In this document: positions 13,442-30,286 of the stretch, piece after piece
How the letters are laid out: every line of letters starts with the position of its first letter
How positions within the stretch are numbered: the stretch's first letter is position 1
IMG/VR virus record: IMGVR_UViG_3300017971_004694
Direction: 5' to 3' (one strand)
Origin: a virus
DNA: 64,000 nt
Notes under the pieces: model-generated
What the model was told of the DNA's origin: nothing
The model's database searches: none
The model's input: the letters and a program-made list of their open reading frames with translations, nothing else
Made by a program: the position numbers and the translations under genes

Positions 13442-13490
13442 GCCCAACTAGACACTCTTACTGTAATGCCTATAAGAGATCCAATTGGGC
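13442..13490 (-). promoter_or_regulatory. Long RNA hairpin followed by U6; loop complementary to downstream start codon
   Basis: Stems gcccaa/uugggc and cucuua/uaagag; loop UAGGCAUU (13465-13472) matches AAUGCCUA (13416-13423). Confidence 0.6.
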
Positions 13491-20373: not shown

Positions 20374-21479
20374 TACTCTTCCTCCTCTATTGGTTCCTCT
20401 GCTTTTGCACCAGAGGCTCTTGCTTCATTAGCCTTTTGAACAAGTTCCTCAGTAATTCCCTTTTGTTCAATATAATCATAAAAGTTTTTCTTTCCCTTTA
20501 TCTTCTGGTCGCCATATTCATACATCACATTGTTTGGTCTTACCACTACTCCATATTTTATAGCCAAGTCCGCCGCTTCAATGTGTCTATTGGTCAAACC
20601 CTCTGTATATCTAATATCAAACTCCCCAGAACGGAAAGGGGGCGCAACCTTATTCTTATCTATACGAGCCTTTACTCTGTGGCCAACTTGCACATCACCT
20701 TCCGTAATCCTAGTGTCAGCGGACGACAAGGGCAAGAAGTGAACCATTACAGAGCAGTAGTGCTTCCAAGCAGAGCCGCCCGTTGTGGTGGTTGGATCGC
20801 CCCACATCTTACCAGGGTCGGTCCTAACTTGATTGATGGCGATGAACACAACTCCGGTCTCAGACAGCAATGGCGTTAGTTTCCTAAGCTCTGGCGGCAA
20901 GAATCTTCCCATCAGGGCCATGTTGTTTTTACCAGACACGCTCGCTAGCTCCATCGGAGGAGCCACAGCAGCTATACTGTCCAATATAATTAGGCCAAGC
21001 CCCGACTCCTCTGCGCCGCCCTGAACTCTAACCAAATCCAGAAGGCCAGGTTTCAGTTTATTTTTGCCTGGTTCCTTATGCGGAACTCCACATAGCCTAG
21101 AGAATATCTTTGCGCCGTTATTTTCTTTATACAATATCAAACGATCAGGGCTTGTATCCACTCCAAGTAGCTTGGCCCAATCCATATCGAAAGTATATTC
21201 TGCGTCTATAAAGAGAACATAGTTTTTTGGATCCTTCTGCTGCCACTCTCTAGCGGCCATGAGACTCATGAGAGTCTTGCCGCTGCTCTCTTTTCCGGCA
21301 TACTGAGTAATCCTGCCCATGGGCAAGCCACCAACCCCCAGGGCGTCATCTACGGCTGGGCTCCCTGATGTTATTGCTTTTACATCAGCAATCAGGTCGT
21401 CATCTCCTCTATAAAATCCATCATCTCCATATTGTTTGATCATCTCGGACCATAGTGCTTCTACTTTGCTTTTAGCCAT
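20373..21479 (-). CDS. recA: RecA/UvsX-like recombinase
   Basis: Walker A GKESSGKT, FIDAE, LDSIAA, INQVR, GGSAWKHY, KNKVAPPFR. Confidence 0.92.
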   Translation of the reverse strand: MAKSKVEALWSEMIKQYGDDGFYRGDDDLIADVKAITSGSPAVDDALGVGGLPMGRITQYAGKESSGKTLMSLMAAREWQQKDPKNYVLFIDAEYTFDMDWAKLLGVDTSPDRLILYKENNGAKIFSRLCGVPHKEPGKNKLKPGLLDLVRVQGGAEESGLGLIILDSIAAVAPPMELASVSGKNNMALMGRFLPPELRKLTPLLSETGVVFIAINQVRTDPGKMWGDPTTTTGGSAWKHYCSVMVHFLPLSSADTRITEGDVQVGHRVKARIDKNKVAPPFRSGEFDIRYTEGLTNRHIEAADLAIKYGVVVRPNNVMYEYGDQKIKGKKNFYDYIEQKGITEELVQKANEARASGAKAEEPIEEEE

Positions 21480-22441
21480 TATTTTTGTTCTCCTTTTTCT
21501 AATGATTTTTTAAGCTTACTGAGCAATTCGGTTTGTTCTTCAGTGAGATTTTTGGGCAATTCTATTTTAACTTCTATTAGGTGATCACCCCAATGGCCAA
21601 ATTTATCCTTCATACCTCCGTCTTTAATTCGTATGACTGAGCTGGGTTGTGTGCCTGGAGCAATCTTTAGTTTCTTTTTACCTCCCAGAGTTTTTATTTC
21701 TATCGTATTTCCAAGTAAAGCATCAAACATACTTATTTTTAGTGAACTTAATATATCAGATCCATTATCCATCAGGCGGAACTCTTTGTGCGGAGCGTAT
21801 ATTACCACAAAGTCAATTTCTTTCGTGGCTGGTATTACCTGACCATACGCTGTGCCCGCAGGGATCGAGATTTCTATTTCATCTGAAACAATCTTGCCCC
21901 CACGACCATTGCACTCTTCACAATGACCCTTAACTTCTTTACCCATGCCCCTGCAATATCCGCAGGAGCTTCGCATCTTAATGACACCCCTATCTACAAT
22001 CTGCTCACCAAGTCCGTTGCAATTAGGGCAGTTCTTGTCTCCAAAGAGGATGCCCTGGGTGCATTTATCGCAATTAACCGTAGTGTCTATCCTAACCTTC
22101 TTCTTGCCGCCATTAAAAGCATCTTCCATGGGGACGGCAATATTTGCCGTTCTTTTCCGTTGTCTTCTAACTCTTGGGTTTTGAAACGGGCTTTGAAAGC
22201 CAAAACCCCCAAATGTTTGACTAAACAGATCGTTTAAGTCTTGCATGGGGTTAGGGCCATGAACCGTGCCATTCTTAATCGAATCATAAGCGGCATTGAT
22301 TTCTTTGAACTTTTCTTCTGCGTCCTTGCTTCCCTGATTCTTATCAGGATGCCATTTCTGGGCAAGCTCTTTCCAAGCTTTCTTGGCATCTTCCTTAGAG
22401 GCTCCTGGGCTCAAGCCTAGCACTTTATACGGATCTTGCAT
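21479..22441 (-). CDS. dnaJ: DnaJ co-chaperone
   Basis: J-domain with HPD, short G/F region, four CxxCxGxG-type repeats, C-terminal domain. Confidence 0.92.
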   Translation of the reverse strand: MQDPYKVLGLSPGASKEDAKKAWKELAQKWHPDKNQGSKDAEEKFKEINAAYDSIKNGTVHGPNPMQDLNDLFSQTFGGFGFQSPFQNPRVRRQRKRTANIAVPMEDAFNGGKKKVRIDTTVNCDKCTQGILFGDKNCPNCNGLGEQIVDRGVIKMRSSCGYCRGMGKEVKGHCEECNGRGGKIVSDEIEISIPAGTAYGQVIPATKEIDFVVIYAPHKEFRLMDNGSDILSSLKISMFDALLGNTIEIKTLGGKKKLKIAPGTQPSSVIRIKDGGMKDKFGHWGDHLIEVKIELPKNLTEEQTELLSKLKKSLEKGEQK

Positions 22442-23042
22442 CTTTCAACTCCAGAACACATGCCCAAGCGGCTGCAATTCCATCAGCCTCGTCATAAGCT
22501 TCTTTGGCTACATTGCCCTTTCTATTTATGAGTGTTTCAAATGTCGGTTCCAGTTTGTCGATAATCAGATCTGGTATTCCTTCTTTTTCTATCTTCTTGG
22601 GAAGCTTACAAGCATTCTTGATAATCTTTCTAATCGTCTGGGACGGATAGAATATAATCTCTGCATCGCTATTTTTATGAGCAGAGAGGGCTGCGACTCT
22701 GTTGAACGTAGCTAAAATCGTGATTGTCTTTGCCTGAGACTTCCCTTTCATGAATAACAATATGTCTTCTATGGAAACGTGCGTGGGCTCAAGCTCCTCG
22801 CACAGGGTCTTTATAGTTTCATAGACGCCATCCAGTCGCTCTATAAGTCCATGTTTGCTGTCGAGCGGCTTGATATGGCCATAAGCTAATAGATGGGGCT
22901 CGTCGTTCAAGTCAACAAGACCCCATCCAATTGTAGATGAACTACAATCTAATCCCAATACTTTAATGTCAGCTTTAGAATCGGCTACTTTAACGAGCCG
23001 ACTCTTTTTTATACATTTCTCTTCTTTTTCTAATTTCCTCAT
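22425..23042 (-). CDS. RuvC-like Holliday junction resolvase
   Basis: VLGLDCSSSTIGWG, IED, DEADGIAAA; start uncertain. Confidence 0.75.
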   Translation of the reverse strand: MRKLEKEEKCIKKSRLVKVADSKADIKVLGLDCSSSTIGWGLVDLNDEPHLLAYGHIKPLDSKHGLIERLDGVYETIKTLCEELEPTHVSIEDILLFMKGKSQAKTITILATFNRVAALSAHKNSDAEIIFYPSQTIRKIIKNACKLPKKIEKEGIPDLIIDKLEPTFETLINRKGNVAKEAYDEADGIAAAWACVLELKDARSV

Positions 23043-23427
23043 TAATATCTAATCTGTGAAAGACTCCCATGGTTTTACCTTCTAAGACCCTTTTATCATA
23101 CAACCTTTTCATATTAACTATATCATTGACGCGCCTCTGGTCGATATTACCACACCTCTCAACCTCGGGCTCTACTTTGCACAGCTTAGAAAGAGCATCA
23201 ATTATATAATCCCTATGTTCGCCAGACATAAATTCAAGTAGATTATCTATGTGTTCCCATTTACTCCAATAAGAACTCACTCTTTCTTTTGCTTTGGACA
23301 TCTTTTTGTCCCAAGTTTCCTTGTCGTCATCAACATTTAGGTCGCTGATCAATGCCTTCATAAATTCTTCAAACATCTCTCTTTCGTTTTCCCACCTTCT
23401 CATTTCTTCTATCCAATTGTCAGACAT
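22990..23427 (-). CDS. Hypothetical protein, paralog of neighbour
   Basis: Shares MKAL..DDD..W.K.M and KR..DKR...G.FHR.D with 23429..23755. Confidence 0.7.
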   Translation of the reverse strand: MSDNWIEEMRRWENEREMFEEFMKALISDLNVDDDKETWDKKMSKAKERVSSYWSKWEHIDNLLEFMSGEHRDYIIDALSKLCKVEPEVERCGNIDQRRVNDIVNMKRLYDKRVLEGKTMGVFHRLDINEEIRKRREMYKKESAR

Positions 23428-23428
23428 C

Positions 23429-23755
23429 TCAATCACCTTCTTCGGGGTCTATTCTATGAAAGCACCCTATACTACCCTTTTTTATATGTCTTTTATCACT
23501 ATCTCTTTTTGCATTGATAAGCTTATCTATAATCTTTTGATCCACAACACTGTCAAAGGATTCCATGCGATTCGCAAAGTCGGCTATTTTCAACAAAGTT
23601 TCTTCGACATTTTCTACATTAGTGCTTTTCATCCCAACAAGTTGTCGAACTTCGTCCATCGTTTTGCGCCACCCCTCGTCATCGTCTGGGTTCAAATTTT
23701 TCAGAGCTTTCATTACTTTTCGAATTCTTTCAATTTCTTTATCATTTTCAGACAT
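23429..23755 (-). CDS. Hypothetical protein, paralog of neighbour
   Basis: See above; start refined to MSEND. Confidence 0.7.
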   Translation of the reverse strand: MSENDKEIERIRKVMKALKNLNPDDDEGWRKTMDEVRQLVGMKSTNVENVEETLLKIADFANRMESFDSVVDQKIIDKLINAKRDSDKRHIKKGSIGCFHRIDPEEGD

Positions 23756-23765
23756 CTCAATCACC

Positions 23766-24365
23766 TCAGTTGGGCTCGGGATCTGCTTCCTCAAGCTCAT
23801 TTATTAAATCACTCAGTTTATGACCTATAAGACCAATGTCTTTCTCATTTATTTTCTCGAACTCCTGACAACTCTTAACGAAATCAGCTTCAAGCTTTCT
23901 GCCTGAGCCCATTAAAGATTTGTGTAAGTCTGCCCAAGAGCCGTTGTAGTTCTGATCCCTGATGGCCGCGAGCCTTTCAGGATAGAACTCTTGTATGTTG
24001 AATTCTGAGAACATAGATAAATCTACCACTGAGAAGTCCAGCTGCTTATTAAAGTCATCTGCGAACTTTTTGATGTCTGCTAAACACGCGCATATCTTAT
24101 GTAAATACTTATTAAGCGACCTTGAGGTGGGCATTATTGTTCCTACATAGAAGGTCATTATGGGGTCATCTGGACTATCAAAATTGGGTGGAGAGCACCC
24201 AAAGCCATGACTGTGAGTGATTTCCATAATCTTGAATATCAACTTCTGACTTATGTGATCGCGATCAAATATAACCTGTGCCTCAATCCTTGGGGGCCTG
24301 GACATAAAGTGAAGCACATTAAACTCTTCCAGCTCAATTATCTCTACATCAATAGGTTTGTCCAT
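23766..24365 (-). CDS. Hypothetical protein
   Basis: In-operon ORF. Confidence 0.7.
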   Translation of the reverse strand: MDKPIDVEIIELEEFNVLHFMSRPPRIEAQVIFDRDHISQKLIFKIMEITHSHGFGCSPPNFDSPDDPIMTFYVGTIMPTSRSLNKYLHKICACLADIKKFADDFNKQLDFSVVDLSMFSEFNIQEFYPERLAAIRDQNYNGSWADLHKSLMGSGRKLEADFVKSCQEFEKINEKDIGLIGHKLSDLINELEEADPEPN

Positions 24366-24387
24366 ATATTATACTCACAAAATAAGT

Positions 24388-24430
24388 GCCGCTGGGCTCC
24401 AGGCCACGTTGAAGTTTGGAGCCCAGCGGC
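24388..24430. promoter_or_regulatory. Perfect 14-bp hairpin downstream of ssb with 15-nt loop
   Basis: gccgctgggctcca / tggagcccagcggc; T5 on plus side, weaker U tract on minus side. Confidence 0.75.
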
Positions 24431-24449
24431 TTTTTGCTACTATTGCTGC

Positions 24450-25097
24450 TTACAGTTCATCTCCGAAGTTGAAATCATCGTCACTAATGGACGGCTTCGA
24501 ATCAGCTGAAACGGTCTTGGTTCCAACGGCATACTGGGCACCAGTCCCATTATCACCGGAGGCTCCCATCTTTTCCAGCACTTCTTCGGGAGTGAGTGGC
24601 TGGGTGAACTTGGTAATGTCCACGCGCTCGAAAAAGCCCTTGGCCAGCGCCTTCTCCTCATCGGTCAATGGAGACTTGTTAGGATCACCCATCACCGTGT
24701 AAAGAGGCTGAGAGCCCTTAGGGCCCCTGTTGACGCTGATATCATAGGCAGTCACGTCTCCCCACTTGGGGTTGTTCACATGCTTCTTGATACCCAGATA
24801 AATCTGACTGGAAATCTCCAGAATCTTGGGCTGACCGGATTTGCGATCCAGAACACCCAGGTACCAACGGCACTGAGTCTTCTCACCCTTTTTGCAAAGG
24901 GGGCAATTCTCAATAGCGCAACGAATCTTACGAGTCGATCCGCTAGCGTCCTTAACCCAATGGACGACGAACTGGTAAGGCTTAGTAAGGACTCTCACCT
25001 CATTATCACCTTGCTCCAAGTTCATGAAATCATTTCCACCAGAAACATTTCCTTCGTCCCAATCTACCTGTCCGTATTTAATCTCTGCGTTTGCCAT
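24450..25097 (-). CDS. Single-stranded DNA-binding protein (gp32-like)
   Basis: F..L..GDNEVRVL, HW, CxxxxCPLC zinc site, acidic aromatic C-tail SDDDFNFGDEL; start refined to ATG 25097 (AAGGAG RBS). Confidence 0.8.
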   Translation of the reverse strand: MANAEIKYGQVDWDEGNVSGGNDFMNLEQGDNEVRVLTKPYQFVVHWVKDASGSTRKIRCAIENCPLCKKGEKTQCRWYLGVLDRKSGQPKILEISSQIYLGIKKHVNNPKWGDVTAYDISVNRGPKGSQPLYTVMGDPNKSPLTDEEKALAKGFFERVDITKFTQPLTPEEVLEKMGASGDNGTGAQYAVGTKTVSADSKPSISDDDFNFGDEL

Positions 25098-25214
25098 AAT
25101 TTTTCTCCTTGTTGCCCTTGGTGCTCTCTCGGCACATAATCGGGCGGTTAGATTTTTGATATGTTTTGCAAAAGACTTCAACTCCTTTGACGAACATATC
25201 TTTCAACGTGGCCT
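25098..25214 (-). ncRNA. Structured ssb 5' leader (candidate cis-regulatory RNA)
   Basis: Hairpin 25158-25200, nested stems 25114-25145, and a 13-nt element complementary to the downstream hairpin loop. Confidence 0.55.
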
Positions 25215-25458
25215 ATCTTTGTTTATACATTAAACTTCTTACATGATCAATGTTACTTCCGTGAATCCATTCTTCAACGAGGTCTCGCTCGCCAGGCTCT
25301 GCAAGTTTCTTCTCCATATCCGGATCTGAAACCCAAAATCCAACTCCATGAAACCATGAACCCTCAAAAGGAGGCCCCTTCTTTACAACAACGAACACCT
25401 TCTTGGTTTCCTTCGTATATGCAGCCCAATATAAATCTTCTCTTTTTATCTCTACCAT
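25213..25458 (-). CDS. Hypothetical protein
   Basis: In-operon ORF. Confidence 0.6.
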   Translation of the reverse strand: MVEIKREDLYWAAYTKETKKVFVVVKKGPPFEGSWFHGVGFWVSDPDMEKKLAEPGERDLVEEWIHGSNIDHVRSLMYKQR

Positions 25459-25970
25459 TCTTTCTCTCCCCAGCTTGTTTTATCGGTGGTTACTTCAGAA
25501 AAGCCAGCAGATCGCATATGTTGCTGCTCCGCCTTGAGCTTATCTTTCATATACTGATGTGATTTCAGAAACCACTTATGCTTGTCTTCAAACCAGTGCT
25601 TCACAGTCTCGGCTTTCATCAAAGCCTCACAAGCCTCTACATAATCAGGATGACTTTCAGCATAAGCCTTTCTTTCCTCTACTGTCTTATGCCCCTCACC
25701 CTTGGCTGCTAAATATAGCTTCTGTCTCGTTGTATTTTTCTCAAGCTTCATCTTTTGCGTATGATGAATAAGAGCCGAATGAATTTCGCTACATCTATCA
25801 GCCGCCCTCAGATATACGCCCGCGAGTTTTTCAGCAATGGCTATATCAATATTAGTATCTTGAGGCAATTGCTCCGACATCTCTTTGAACTCCGATATAT
25901 CTATATTCATCGGGTCAAATGTGTCTAGTGCCAATGACTCTTTAAGCGTCAGACTTTTTTCCTCGGTCAT
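25452..25970 (-). CDS. Coiled-coil protein, possibly UvsY-like recombination mediator
   Basis: All-helical, KTVEERKAYAESHPDY resembles UvsY-type segment; near ssb and recA. Confidence 0.45.
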   Translation of the reverse strand: MTEEKSLTLKESLALDTFDPMNIDISEFKEMSEQLPQDTNIDIAIAEKLAGVYLRAADRCSEIHSALIHHTQKMKLEKNTTRQKLYLAAKGEGHKTVEERKAYAESHPDYVEACEALMKAETVKHWFEDKHKWFLKSHQYMKDKLKAEQQHMRSAGFSEVTTDKTSWGEKEW

Positions 25971-26235
25971 TTAATATTTCCCTTACCTGTCTTTCTACGC
26001 GCCTAAGGCGCTGGTTTATCATCAGATTTTGCAGAAAAAATATAACGCCCCAGCCAATCTGTCTCCCCGGAGGCGTTTTGATTAGAATAATGCAACCATC
26101 GCCATCCACTTCAAACATGTCTCTAAACTGATCTTTGCCTGAATACGTTCCATAAGTAAAAGACTCAACAATCTTTTTGTATTCTTCGTATTCTGCATTA
26201 GTCATATCGACTTGCTTGTAGTCAACGACTTTCAT
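25942..26235 (-). CDS. Hypothetical protein
   Basis: In-operon ORF. Confidence 0.65.
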   Translation of the reverse strand: MKVVDYKQVDMTNAEYEEYKKIVESFTYGTYSGKDQFRDMFEVDGDGCIILIKTPPGRQIGWGVIFFLQNLMINQRLRRVERQVREILNDRGKKSDA

Positions 26236-26858
26236 TAACCACTCCTACGAACCGATCCAGAACCCGACTTCAAAGCCTGCTGCTGTTTGGCCAATCTCAA
26301 CAATCTCTCTTGTTCCAGCCTGGGGTTTCCATCAAGTTCGGAATCGCTCATATGACCGCCACCACCCTTTGCTCCAAGTTGAGATAGGACATTGGCCATA
26401 TTGGCATGTTCATCCTCCACAGGCCCTTCCTGGTCCATCCCAGCAGCCACTACAGCCGCCTGGTCCACCATACTATACTTTTCCCTAACAGCCTGCTCAA
26501 AAAGTTGCTCTCGCGTCTTGGGATCTATACCTTCCATCTGGGAAACATTAATAATGTCTGCGTCTTCCACCTCTTCAGTCACAACTTCTCTATTTGAAAG
26601 TTCCTGTTTCTGCCGCCTTGGCGGAGCCTTACGCTGCACAAGAGGAGAAATTTCATATTTGACCGCCAAGGCAGTCGCCAGCTTCCTCACGGTGCCCTCG
26701 CGCAAGGCCACTTCAGAGGAAATTGTCTGCTCAAGATCTTCTATTAGAGCAAGTAGTTCCTCATCCATGATTTGATTGCCGCAAGAAGGGCATACATTTT
26801 GAGCAATTGCGTGCTTAAGCTCTGGTGATATTTCAAAATTACAAGATCTGCATTTCAT
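26235..26858 (-). CDS. Zinc-ribbon hypothetical protein
   Basis: N-terminal CRSC...CPSC. Confidence 0.7.
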   Translation of the reverse strand: MKCRSCNFEISPELKHAIAQNVCPSCGNQIMDEELLALIEDLEQTISSEVALREGTVRKLATALAVKYEISPLVQRKAPPRRQKQELSNREVVTEEVEDADIINVSQMEGIDPKTREQLFEQAVREKYSMVDQAAVVAAGMDQEGPVEDEHANMANVLSQLGAKGGGGHMSDSELDGNPRLEQERLLRLAKQQQALKSGSGSVRRSG

Positions 26859-26892
26859 TTTCGTTCTACCTCTCTACCATAATTTAATGCCT

Positions 26893-26901
26893 TATTGATA
26901 G
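26893..26901 (-). promoter_or_regulatory. Putative phage promoter core CTATCAATA
   Basis: Intergenic, 35 nt upstream of ATG 26858. Confidence 0.5.
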
Positions 26902-26917
26902 ATAGTCAAGTCTTTTT

Positions 26918-29900
26918 CTACAATCCTTGCGCTTTTTCTATCTCTCGTAGCATAATGGTCTTTACTCCATTAAATTCGCTTACTTGGCATTTTGCTCTGA
27001 TTTGTCTTCCCTCCTTCATAATTTTCTTAGCAATTTCATACTGATCCGGCCAAACAGTCAATTCGGTTTCGCCACCATCCACGTCCGCCACACGATATTT
27101 AATCATCATTTGGCCCTTGTATCTTCCGCTTTTTATTTTGAACTCTCTCAACATATTTTTGACGAGGAACTCAACCATTATATTGTGGCGATCTGGCAGA
27201 ATCTTGAGTCTGGCCATGGGTGTTGTGCCCACACCCGTGAAGAAACCGGGAAACATATCATTTACATTCCCTGTGAGCAACTCTCCCAATACATCCTGCT
27301 CATGTCTCAAAAGCTCCTGTCTTGGCCACTCCTCTTCCTCAACCTTTATAGCGCACTCCTCAACAACCAGCTCGGCACCATAACCATCCTTTTTCTTGTT
27401 CCTGATGAAAGCGGTCATTTTATCTCTGTTCTTTTTAGCCCCATCATGAACTCCTTTGCGAGATAGATTAAAAGAATCAAAGCAACCAGCTTTGGCAAGA
27501 ACTTCCTGCCTGGTCTTGTTTATAATCCTGCCGTCAGTTTTATAGAGAAACTCCATAATGTTGGCGTAGGGCTGTTTATTTACAATTTCTGCAACAGCCT
27601 TTTCACCTAAGCCCTTAATAGCCGCAAAGCCCATAACTATTGATTCCTCATCAAGAACCTCATAGCTGGCTCCGCTTCTGTTAAGATCGGGCGGAATTAT
27701 CTTAATGCCCATTCTGCGGCACTCTTCCTTAGCCATGGCCACTTCTTCGTCCTTGTGAATGCCGCCGCGCTCAGTTTTTACTTTTAGATATGCAGCCAAA
27801 AAAGCTGCTGGATAATGACACTTTAGATATGCTGTGATATATCCATTGATAGAATAGAATACTGCGTGAGACTTATTAAAACCATAGCCGCTGAACTTAC
27901 CCACGACCTGATCCCAAAGATTCTTGGAGAATTCATATTCTACATCGTGTTTCTTCATCAAACCCTCGATGAAGTCCACCTCTAATTGAAGAGCCAGTTC
28001 TGGATTCTTGCCCTTGAGTTTCGTAAGCTTCCTCAAGCCATCCGCCTTATTGAGGTCCCAGCCTGCTACATCTTGGGCCACACCCATCAACTGCTCCTCC
28101 ATGACGCACAATCCATATGTAGGGGTGAGAGATTTTGTCAAACTTGGGTGCAGATATGAGATTTTCTTTCTTCCAAACCTACGATCAATATATTCTTGTC
28201 TTTCCTCCTTAGAACATGACGGACGGCCAAGGGCATTTACCATGGCAATGTCCAAGATATTGTTGGGTTTTACTTTTTTGCAAAGCGTCACCATCATCCC
28301 TGACTTGCCCAACTGGAAAACACATCTGGTATTTCCATTTTGAATCATCTTATAGGTTTCTTCATCGCCCATAGGAATATCTTCCATTCTTTCTGGGCCC
28401 TTCATTCCCAGACGCCTAATATTCTTGAAAGTTTCATCTATAACATCCAAGGTGGAAATGGCCAAGAAGTCCATTTTAATCAACCCAAGAGATTCACACC
28501 TATTCTTCTCATATTGGACGGCGACATCACCGTTCTTATCAACCCTTAGTGGCGCAAATTCGATAATCGGTATGTCTGAAATTACCATAGCCGCCGCATG
28601 TGTGGAGAATTCTTTAGGCATCCCAACAATTTGGTCAGCATATTCCATAAGTTCTGGGCACCTATCGGCAAATTTCCTTAGATCTGCCGAAAGCTCCATC
28701 GCTCTTTCCAGCGTCTTAACCCTCTTTCCTTTATTATCTTGTTCTGGAATAGCTTTCTTAATGGCCTCGGACACTCTCACATAGTTAGTTCCCTCAGGAA
28801 CAAGCCCAGGCATAACGTTCCTCATGGACTTTACCAAATCGGGAATGACACTTTTGGCTGTATATGAATTGATATTAGAAACTGTTGCACAATGATCATG
28901 GCCATATTTCTCTCGAACATAATTCTGAACTGCATCCCTCCCCGAGGAAGTAAAATCCGTATCGATGTCGGGGAGGTCGGTTTTATAAGCATTTTGAAAC
29001 CTCTCAAATAACAGACCATATTCTATTGGATCTACGCCATGAATACCCAGCAAATAAGCAACCATACAACCACCAACACTGCCTCGTCCTACGCCAACCA
29101 GTATGCCATTTTCTCTGGACCAATTGATAAAGTCGGCAGTAACCAACATATAAGATGAGAAGTCATTTGCTTCCAATACCTTAAGCTCATGAACCACCCT
29201 GTCCCAACGCTCTTTCCTTTCTTCTGTAGACATATGCCCAAACTTTTCCTTAAAGCCCTTGACAAGCCTGAAGCGCATGAACTCAACATCTTCCTTGAGC
29301 CCAGATGCCATCTTTGCCGTCTTGCGCCAATCAAGGAACTCATCATAGTCTTTTTCGACTTCAGGTTCGAACACAGGAAGGTGATTACCTGTGGTTTCCA
29401 TATAGTCCGGAGGCTCGCACATACCGGCGATCTTGACCGTATTTCCAAGTGCTTCATCGGCCACTTCAGTTCCATAGTGTTTGGATAGAAAGTCATATAC
29501 CTCTTCACCAGATTTGGCGTAGAACTCGTCTAACCCATATCGATGCCTATTGGGATCATCGACAGGAGCTTTAGAATTTATGGCCATAAGCGTGTCGTGG
29601 TATTTTTCGGAATCTCTGGTTAAGTAGTGTGTATCAACCGAAACCGTCAATGGAATGCCCAGCTTGTTGCCAAGCCTTATAAGACCTTCATTAATTATCT
29701 TTTGGTCTATTCGTTCGTTTTTAAGGTGATGTGGCTGTATCTCTACAAAGAAACGTTCGCCAAAAATATCGAGGAACCTAAGAGCCACTTCCTGTGCCTC
29801 GTCTAGCTTGTCATCCATAATCAGCACAGAAAGAGGGCCACTGCTACAAGCAGAAGTGCAGATAAGACCCTCATTGTGTTTCTCAAGCACTTCCCAGCTT

Positions 29901-30286
29901 ATCCTTGGGAATACCCTGCCCATCATTAAAACAAAATGTTGGAACCCAATATAGTTGGCCTTGAGAAGGTTCTTATAACCAACCTCATTTTGGGCCAAGA
30001 GGATCAGGTGCTTCCGCTTCTCAGTCCTCTTTCTTTTGCCTTCAGCCTGTATGAAATCATAGGAGTGGACAAAATACATCTCACATCCGGGAACAAATTG
30101 AACCCCAGTTCTTTTGTAAGCCTTGTGAGCATCAAAATGAGCTGCTAGGGTGCCGTGATCCGTTATAGCCAGGGCTTTTTGACCAAGTTCTTTCACCCTG
30201 TCAAAAAGCTCGTCAACGCCACACAAAGCATCCAGCATAGAACCCAAATTGGTGTGGGCATGTAGATTTACGAATTCAACGCTCAT
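26918..30286 (-). CDS. dnaE: DNA polymerase III alpha subunit (family C)
   Basis: PHP domain (HAH, TDHG, DTH), GRGS, PDIDTDF, KMDFL, GFNKSH, HhH and OB-fold; no intein evident. Confidence 0.96.
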   Translation of the reverse strand: MSVEFVNLHAHTNLGSMLDALCGVDELFDRVKELGQKALAITDHGTLAAHFDAHKAYKRTGVQFVPGCEMYFVHSYDFIQAEGKRKRTEKRKHLILLAQNEVGYKNLLKANYIGFQHFVLMMGRVFPRISWEVLEKHNEGLICTSACSSGPLSVLIMDDKLDEAQEVALRFLDIFGERFFVEIQPHHLKNERIDQKIINEGLIRLGNKLGIPLTVSVDTHYLTRDSEKYHDTLMAINSKAPVDDPNRHRYGLDEFYAKSGEEVYDFLSKHYGTEVADEALGNTVKIAGMCEPPDYMETTGNHLPVFEPEVEKDYDEFLDWRKTAKMASGLKEDVEFMRFRLVKGFKEKFGHMSTEERKERWDRVVHELKVLEANDFSSYMLVTADFINWSRENGILVGVGRGSVGGCMVAYLLGIHGVDPIEYGLLFERFQNAYKTDLPDIDTDFTSSGRDAVQNYVREKYGHDHCATVSNINSYTAKSVIPDLVKSMRNVMPGLVPEGTNYVRVSEAIKKAIPEQDNKGKRVKTLERAMELSADLRKFADRCPELMEYADQIVGMPKEFSTHAAAMVISDIPIIEFAPLRVDKNGDVAVQYEKNRCESLGLIKMDFLAISTLDVIDETFKNIRRLGMKGPERMEDIPMGDEETYKMIQNGNTRCVFQLGKSGMMVTLCKKVKPNNILDIAMVNALGRPSCSKEERQEYIDRRFGRKKISYLHPSLTKSLTPTYGLCVMEEQLMGVAQDVAGWDLNKADGLRKLTKLKGKNPELALQLEVDFIEGLMKKHDVEYEFSKNLWDQVVGKFSGYGFNKSHAVFYSINGYITAYLKCHYPAAFLAAYLKVKTERGGIHKDEEVAMAKEECRRMGIKIIPPDLNRSGASYEVLDEESIVMGFAAIKGLGEKAVAEIVNKQPYANIMEFLYKTDGRIINKTRQEVLAKAGCFDSFNLSRKGVHDGAKKNRDKMTAFIRNKKKDGYGAELVVEECAIKVEEEEWPRQELLRHEQDVLGELLTGNVNDMFPGFFTGVGTTPMARLKILPDRHNIMVEFLVKNMLREFKIKSGRYKGQMMIKYRVADVDGGETELTVWPDQYEIAKKIMKEGRQIRAKCQVSEFNGVKTIMLREIEKAQGL

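Follow-up and report, generated by a model that had tools for sequence, protein, structure and literature searches.

Covarying complementarity between the leader of a viral gp32-type ssb gene and the loop of a hairpin downstream of the gene

Introduction

Why should the first bases of the leader of a viral ssb gene be the exact complement of a hairpin loop that lies beyond the end of the same gene? The question is raised by one locus in a 64,000-nt stretch of DNA from an uncultured large phage, IMG/VR virus record IMGVR_UViG_3300017971_004694. This whole stretch is called the window here and all coordinates refer to it. The minus strand carries all genes near the pairing as well as every feature located below, and the arms and hairpins are written in the sense of the messenger RNA (mRNA). 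A sequence-only reading of the window had noticed the complementarity and proposed a closed-loop ssb mRNA that switches between two partners, with a role in the DNA as an alternative. We compared the locus with its relatives, and the comparison indicates that the leader very probably pairs with the loop as RNA of the mRNA sense and that this pairing has been kept by selection.

Results

Complementarity of the leader edge and the hairpin loop

The leader arm of the pairing, AGGCCACGUUGAA (25202..25214), lies at the 5' edge of the structured ssb leader (25098..25214, 117 nt), and its first bases overlap the TAG of the upstream open reading frame (ORF). The loop arm, UUCAACGUGGCCU (24401..24413), lies in the loop of a 3' hairpin (24388..24430), which starts 19 nt past the ssb stop codon and has a perfect 14-bp G+C-rich stem (24430-24417 / 24401-24388). 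The two arms are exact complements in 13 of 13 nt and are about 790 nt apart. The hairpin loop has 15 nt (24416-24402) with a 3-nt unpaired 5' linker, AAC, while the last base of the loop arm belongs to the closing pair of the stem and makes the arm continuous with the 3' stem arm. The reverse complement, the perfect hairpin downstream of ssb and the structured leader had all been described in the sequence-only reading, and we found each of them where that reading had placed it.

The 13-nt match alone was not significant, since shuffled 64-kb windows held 1.3 ± 1.5 exact 13-mer inverted repeats with copies no more than 1 kb apart. The motif was present at just the two ssb sites in the 116-kb virus record. 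We scanned this strand of the window for hairpins whose stem has 10 bp or more and whose loop has 9-30 nt (n = 17), and only the ssb hairpin showed an outstanding upstream complement (z = -4.9, with the others between -2.6 and +1.9). Pairing of loops with upstream sequence as a general habit of the phage was rejected, as 0 of the 16 other large-loop hairpins in the window were comparable. A large-loop hairpin at 13442-13490 is followed by U6, and its loop showed no notable upstream complement (z = 0.7).

Conservation and covariation of the pairing in relatives

Relatives were recruited by the SSB protein from viral and metagenome contigs (47-65% identity) and from a large protein collection (88-95%). 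The homologous loci number roughly 110, and the contigs were found in sediment and groundwater samples. A blastn search against GenBank phages gave no match, and no SSB relative was found in GTDB genome contigs. The leader/loop helix was kept in 22 alignable loci (SSB 54-95% identical) and in one further locus, L023, whereas three lineages among the loci with both ends are without it. All main-clade loci that hold both ends have a hairpin after ssb, with a stem of 13-17 bp (11-12 bp in three) and a loop of 10-26 nt that complements the 5' edge of the leader. Both sides of the helix change together, as seen in the leader arm and loop arm pairs GGCCGCGUA / UACGCGGCC, AGACCACAUUGU / ACAAUGUGGUCU, AGGUCGCGUUGAA / UUCAACGCGACCU, GGCCACGUCAA / UUGACGUGGCC and AACCGUGCC / GGCACGGUU. 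The two equivalent sites of L023 carry a wholly unrelated 12-bp helix, UGUGUUGGAAAU / AUUUCCAACACA. The energies of cognate loop/leader duplexes ranged from -15 to -25 kcal/mol, with z scores of -2.9 to -6.6 against shuffled loops.

The alignment of the 22 loci (A5) began with the leader arm's first base and ended with the last one of the loop arm. Standard pairs made up 92.1% of the cells, compared with 79.2 ± 1.3% when the 3' letters were shuffled (0/500), and 27-39% of the cells were paired when the partner was slid by 1-3 columns. Changes on both sides occurred in 12 of the 13 pairs (49 cells), and positions 3-10 contained zero unpaired cells across loci. We then counted changes by parsimony on a maximum-likelihood tree for which only the ssb coding columns were used. 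The count showed at least 32 Watson-Crick pair-type switches at positions 2-12, and 36 over all 13 positions, so the pairing signal is not a single inherited event. Covariation across homologous ssb loci, which the sequence-only reading had named as its check, thus upheld the pairing. Even the window and its 95% identical relative L062 differ by a compensatory change from G-C to A-U at position 8 and by a change from C to U, giving U:G, at position 4.

Pairing at the level of RNA

On the mRNA-sense strand, the 239 cells at positions 2-12 included 223 Watson-Crick pairs, 8 G:U, 1 A:C and 5 other combinations. All four non-Watson-Crick pairs at the core positions 3-10 were G:U. Pairing on the opposite strand or in duplex DNA would show A:C mismatches in their place, and the excess of G:U on the mRNA strand very probably places the pairing at the RNA level.

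Two explanations without an RNA helix can be weighed against these results. A chance inverted repeat, which the number of such repeats expected per window would allow, is refuted by covariation, with at least 32 independent compensatory switches over 22 loci, and its probability is practically negligible. The 13-mers could otherwise act as DNA, either as paired protein sites that support looping, as crossover sites for inversion, or as single-stranded-DNA structure. Inverted sites that co-evolve with the specificity of a protein would mimic compensatory change, and the gene between the copies does encode a DNA-binding protein. However, the non-identical positions are G:U-compatible on the mRNA strand eight times and A:C once, and one of the copies is invariably found in a strong hairpin's loop, directly abutting the 3' arm, a geometry that would be meaningless for duplex DNA. 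The length and the ends of the helix also vary (8 to 16 bp), and the sequence is wholly different in L023. Furthermore, ssb is co-oriented with its neighbours in all fetched loci, no inverted ssb was seen, and the neighbours (DNA polymerase III (Pol III) alpha, small unknown ORFs, RuvC and DnaJ) include no adjacent invertase. The inverted-repeat role in DNA that the sequence-only reading had kept as an alternative is accordingly disfavoured, and we regard it as highly improbable.

Geometry of the predicted gene-enclosing pseudoknot

The order of the arms is leader arm, 5' stem arm, loop arm and 3' stem arm, which is that of an H-type pseudoknot, and the whole ssb gene can be taken as its long connecting loop. 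One strand runs through both helices, so coaxial stacking is expected. From the arrangement of the arms, the long-range helix and the stem can stack end to end into a rod of about 27 bp in the window (20-31 bp in relatives), and the short linker would run across the long-range helix in its deep groove.

This geometry was similar throughout the family. Loop arm and 3' stem arm were separated by -2 to +3 nt (median 0), and the unpaired 5' part of the loop was A/U-rich and 2-11 nt long (median 3.5). The long-range helix measured 8-16 bp (median 12) and the stem 11-17 bp, with a sum of 20-31 bp. The leader arm was always first in the intergenic leader, where it overlapped the upstream stop codon, lay up to 37 nt past it, or lay inside the upstream ORF (L013, L046 and L054). 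It was 60-120 nt before the ATG and the Shine-Dalgarno sequence was never touched. The pairing stayed with ssb in four loci that have a different upstream gene (L060, L015, L063 and L067).

Read-through of the ssb stop codon, stimulated by a pseudoknot 5-19 nt past it, was considered and set aside. Both the spacing and the stop codon vary among the loci, and nothing stands out in the window's in-frame extension of 24 codons.

The proposed alternative partner of the loop

The sequence-only reading had also proposed that the same loop can pair with the apical loop of a leader hairpin, making two mutually exclusive states. The 8-nt match is present, between ACUUCAAC at 24415-24408 and GUUGAAGU in the leader (25175..25182), but it was not supported as a conserved pairing or as a switch partner. 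The energy of this duplex in the window was within that of shuffled loops (z = -0.6). No systematic second site complementary to the loop was found in the leaders of the 22 loci, with a mean z of 0.05 and 1 of 22 loci below -2. The match derives from a GUUGAA repeat within the leader, and the one concordant change, in L062 only, is insufficient as support. A second partner whose pairing does not exceed that of shuffled loops and which relatives do not retain gives no support to a two-state switch.

Structure of the ssb leader

The leader beyond the arm is also conserved among relatives. In the window it contains a hairpin, H1 (25158..25200), formed by GAUAUGUU and AACAUAUC, with the apical loop GUUGAAG at 25182-25176 that holds the proposed alternative partner. 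An H1-like hairpin with the same outer stem (GAUGU/ACAUC type) was found in most relatives. A start-proximal hairpin (25115..25144) follows, in which CCC...GGG (25144-25142 / 25117-25115) encloses GUGC...GCAC (25135-25132 / 25124-25121), and it ends 5 nt before the Shine-Dalgarno sequence. Explicit pair counts showed 85% of its cells paired, compared with 75% after shuffling (0/500), and its compensatory variants include GUAC/GUAC, GCAC/GUGC and GCC/GGC. Its position makes this hairpin a candidate operator for SSB or for ribosome access. RNAalifold gave no consensus structure on 18 divergent leaders, a null result that is explained by the heterogeneous alignment.

Two further pairings of leader sequence were tried and rejected. 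Folds of minimum free energy joined the GGCC of the leader arm to the start codon region AUGGCC, but this is a 4-bp palindrome and is lost where codon 2 is UCU, CCU or ACC. A near-copy of the leader arm, AGACCUCGUUGAA (25285-25273), lies within the upstream ORF with two mismatches and could pair with the loop region at 16 of 20 positions. It is not kept in the 95% relative L062 and was rejected as chance.

Loci L013 (1375-1420), L046 and L054 carry the leader arm and the 5' half of H1 inside the last codons of the upstream ORF, which ends in IDHVESLMYRQRS and a stop codon. The window (25202-25260) has the homologous codons first, ending in NIDHVRSLMYKQR and a stop codon, and then a similar non-coding copy with the arm and H1. 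This order suggests that a short duplication split the coding from the RNA function in the window leader.

The ssb gene and its neighbours

The ssb gene (24450..25097) encodes 215 aa plus stop, with its ATG at 25097-25095 and its TAA at 24452-24450. A Shine-Dalgarno sequence, AAGGAG (25105..25110), lies 7 nt before the ATG. The predicted product is a T4 gp32-type single-stranded-DNA-binding protein. It matches PHROG SSB families, and an AlphaFold model (predicted local distance difference test score, pLDDT, of 79) found only the RB69 and T4 gp32 cores as strong Foldseek matches in the PDB (probability 1.0, template modelling (TM) score about 0.54). Searches with Pfam gave no match for ssb or the small neighbouring ORFs, and no PDB entry was matched by the ssb sequence.

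The upstream ORF (25213..25458; 81 aa, TAG stop at 25215-25213) and the downstream ORF (23766..24365; 199 aa) belong to no known family. The C-terminus of the former is kept in many relatives, and the order of the latter after ssb is the same in relatives. The ATG of the downstream ORF, at 24365, is 22 nt past the hairpin. A promoter of its own does not fit after the hairpin, so its transcripts must pass the hairpin or start within ssb.

These genes belong to a replication/recombination module in the window (21479-30286). The module comprises Pol III alpha (DnaE-like, 1122 aa), three small unknown ORFs, the optional 81-aa ORF, the gp32-type ssb, two or three small unknown ORFs, a RuvC-like resolvase and DnaJ. 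The order from Pol III alpha through ssb to RuvC and DnaJ was retained in contigs of up to 460 kb (huge phages). Relatives have three or four small ORFs between Pol III alpha and ssb, and two or three between ssb and RuvC.

A search with Rfam 15 gave no match at gathering score in the window region or in 20 related loci, and the window hairpin gave only sub-threshold noise from microRNA models. In L058 (2152-2372), an 88% relative, the loop of the 3' hairpin contains a G+C-rich insertion of about 190 nt. The stem arms, GGCCUCUGGGCCA and UGGCCCAGAGGCC, are now about 190 nt apart, 7 bp of the leader pairing are left next to the 3' arm, and the downstream gene is different (297 aa). The insertion gave no Rfam match and may be a small mobile or foreign element.

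Discussion

A possible function in delimiting and stabilising the ssb segment

What the pairing does is less firmly indicated than the pairing itself. Taken together, the pairing and a stabilising or processing function for it form a reading that we consider somewhat better than an even bet. Among the functions considered, a clamp of the two ends in cis that marks out or stabilises the ssb segment is our tentative preference, held at a little short of even and drawn from analogy. The 10-13 bases at the 5' edge of the leader would pair with the 3' part of the hairpin loop, and the ssb mRNA would fold back on itself. The ssb segment of a longer replication-gene transcript would thereby be delimited and stabilised in cis. 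Either RNases would be kept away from the leader's 5' edge and from the 3' end, or RNase III-like processing of the 20-31-bp double-stranded stalk would give a long-lived ssb mRNA. In both cases the yield of SSB would far exceed that of its neighbours.

SSB is needed in stoichiometric amounts, far above those of the neighbouring products. This need within a tightly packed, co-oriented module, the location of the two arms exactly at both boundaries of the ssb segment, and the precedents of hbs and T4 gene 32 favour the clamp over the other functions.

Several observations weigh against this interpretation. With a linker of only 2-3 nt, all 13 pairs and a fully closed 14-bp stem probably cannot coexist, judging from pseudoknot geometry; for the outermost of the 13 pairs, part of one helix probably must open, or else the outer pairs are transient. 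On polycistronic RNA the pairing would be disrupted by ribosomes that complete the upstream ORF, whose stop codon is overlapped by the leader arm. The ribosome-binding site is untouched by the pairing. Finally, several related lineages (L017, L045, L068 and L025-L027) and T4 are without it. In L017, L016 and L035 (243-kb contig; L017:1300-2260) the region upstream is a different one, and a hairpin of its own precedes the ssb leader. L017 keeps an 18-nt loop, CAAGUAACGUUUAUUUUU, in which the motif is decayed, and no partner was found within 700 nt, as though the motif had degenerated once the leader arm was lost. In L045, L068 and the more distant L025-L027, hairpins with small loops or other structures are seen instead.

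Other functions of the pairing

Instead of delimiting the segment, the pairing could tune termination at the hairpin, as an attenuator between ssb and the downstream recombination/chaperone genes. The leader would either stiffen the nascent loop and delay stem closure, giving read-through, or aid folding and thus termination, and either mode would set the ratio of SSB to the downstream products. The next gene starts 10-25 nt past the hairpin, which leaves no room for a promoter and requires some read-through, and loops as large as these (10-26 nt) are unusual in intrinsic terminators. A good U-tract follows the stem directly in about half of the loci (strong in L018, L020, L021, L042, L043, L047 and L067), but the tract is weak or absent in L011, L012, L014, L015, L062 and the window, where the pairing is kept equally well. 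In the window the tail ACUUAUUUUG (24378..24387) is a weak U-tract, the stem is G+C-rich as in a terminator but the loop, at 15 nt, exceeds the about 3-8 nt expected of one, and a consensus terminator scan did not call the hairpin, which is at best a predicted leaky terminator. An antiterminator also normally pairs with a stem arm and not with the loop. Tuning of termination is, by our estimate, an unlikely function in either mode.

Autoregulation by SSB, the idea of the sequence-only reading, would have free SSB, which destabilises helices and binds single strands cooperatively, open or exploit the helix and alter the translation or decay of its own mRNA. The gp32 fold of the protein and the long, structured, conserved leader with A-rich linkers are in keeping with this, and gp32 of T4 uses a pseudoknot in the leader to repress its own mRNA (PMC3014915). 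However, the helix keeps a distance of 60-120 nt from the ribosome-binding site, with no overlap in any locus, the leader has neither a local T4-like pseudoknot nor a UUAAA-repeat tract, T4 gene 32 has no complement between its leader and its terminator loop, and the second partner required for a two-state switch is not conserved. We consider autoregulation of this kind rather improbable. A further possibility is a trans-acting small RNA: the hairpin would be set free as a stable fragment of the 3' end, and its loop would pair with the leader of new ssb or polycistronic transcripts as a feedback. Covariation cannot separate cis from trans pairing, antisense RNAs typically present their seeds in loops, stable terminator hairpins often outlast their mRNAs, and terminator loops of small RNAs can matter in regulation (PMC11979758). 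No indication of a separate RNA species, promoter or processing was seen, and kinetics favour pairing in cis; we consider action in trans very unlikely.

Comparison with known systems

Pairing between the 5' and 3' ends of an mRNA is already known as a kind, from hbs, icaR and hok. The closest case is hbs of Bacillus subtilis, in which a 14-bp helix between the 5' untranslated region (UTR) and its 3' counterpart overlaps an RNase Y site and slows cleavage, and in which compensatory mutants prove the interaction (Braun, Durand & Condon 2017, PMC5737220). In both systems a perfect helix of about 14 bp (-19 kcal/mol in hbs) joins a hairpin-structured leader to the 3' UTR of a short mRNA for an abundant DNA-binding protein. 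The phage ssb gene shares with hbs the complementarity of leader and 3' UTR, here 13/13 nt, and shows compensatory change in relatives. The interaction in hbs modulates endonuclease cleavage and mRNA stability and does not mask the ribosome-binding site, and by analogy we propose the same for ssb. However, the 3' partner in hbs is a linear stretch just upstream of the terminator, so that no pseudoknot or coaxial stack arises, whereas here it is a hairpin loop. The 5' partner in hbs lies after the second leader hairpin, and here at the 5' edge of the leader. Furthermore, hbs is a cellular gene with experimental proof, whereas the phage ssb case is known from sequence comparison alone.

T4 gene 32 resembles the phage ssb gene in its gp32-type fold, its long regulatory leader and, as predicted for ssb, its coaxially stacked H-type pseudoknot. 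The leader pseudoknot is the translational operator of gene 32 in T4, T2 and RB69 (PMC3014915, PMC535899), and the T4 gene 32 mRNAs, which are cut from polycistronic RNA by RNase E at -71, are the most stable T4 mRNAs (PMC3014915). In contrast to the ssb pseudoknot, which spans about 790 nt and does not involve the ribosome-binding site, the T4 pseudoknot is a local one of about 30 nt, placed at -67, and the A+U-rich tract that comes after it, over the ribosome-binding site, is unstructured. The window leader, unlike a T4-type operator, consists of nested hairpins (H1 and CCC/GGG-GUGC/GCAC) with no UUAAA repeats and no Rfam match. At the T4 gene 32 locus we found a classic terminator with a 5-nt loop, and the best leader/3' duplex there was no better than shuffles (z = +1.1).

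The other comparisons are more distant. The hok mRNA of plasmid R1, with its fbi element (Gerdes and colleagues), and other type I toxin mRNAs reportedly pair their 5' end with their 3' end, making the full-length RNA stable and compact. This pairing is said to involve a terminal single strand and to keep the mRNA translationally inert until 3' trimming triggers refolding. Pairing of the two ends is common to hok and ssb, but the ssb partner is a hairpin loop, nothing suggests translational silencing, and the gene encodes an abundantly needed replication protein. In Staphylococcus aureus, the 3' UTR of icaR reportedly pairs with the Shine-Dalgarno region of the 5' UTR, which creates an RNase III site and blocks translation. 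This is likewise an intramolecular pairing between the 3' and 5' UTRs of a bacterial mRNA; however, in the phage ssb leader the arm precedes the Shine-Dalgarno sequence by 60-120 nt. The flanks of ribosomal RNAs pair into a continuous long duplex stalk from which RNase III excises the segment. As there, the flanks of a long RNA pair at ssb, and the stacked 20-31 bp reach the length that RNase III needs. The difference is that the rod at ssb would be composed of a hairpin stem and a loop-leader helix, and that its cleavage is only proposed.

Significance of the pairing

Natural, evolution-proven end-to-end pairings of bacterial or phage mRNAs are, to our knowledge, very few, namely those of hbs, icaR and the hok-type toxins. 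We know of no description of a terminator-like hairpin loop as the 3' partner, of a gene-enclosing pseudoknot, or of such conservation around a phage gp32-type gene. The sequence-only reading had called its closed-loop ssb mRNA undescribed. An RNA-level pairing of this kind is now supported, and it has no Rfam match and is not found in T4 gene 32. The ssb pairing stands out for its unusually clean comparative support and for its distinct topology, a pseudoknot that encloses a whole gene.

The gp32-type SSB gene is the textbook case of post-transcriptional autoregulation in phages, and the ssb pairing differs from the T4 mechanism. It would represent a second solution for obtaining a large, controlled output of one replication protein from an operon. 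The element is short and modular and could become a portable part for stabilising or insulating mRNAs. A more speculative reading, which we think rather doubtful, is that the pseudoknot is a new type of regulatory device that would form only with no ribosome on the leader edge and no terminating ribosome on the 3' hairpin. With the same doubt attached, such a pseudoknot could read the state of translation or the level of free SSB and so decide whether each ssb transcript becomes a long-lived monocistronic mRNA or undergoes read-through or decay. If this were true, the device would set the SSB-to-replisome stoichiometry of huge phages.

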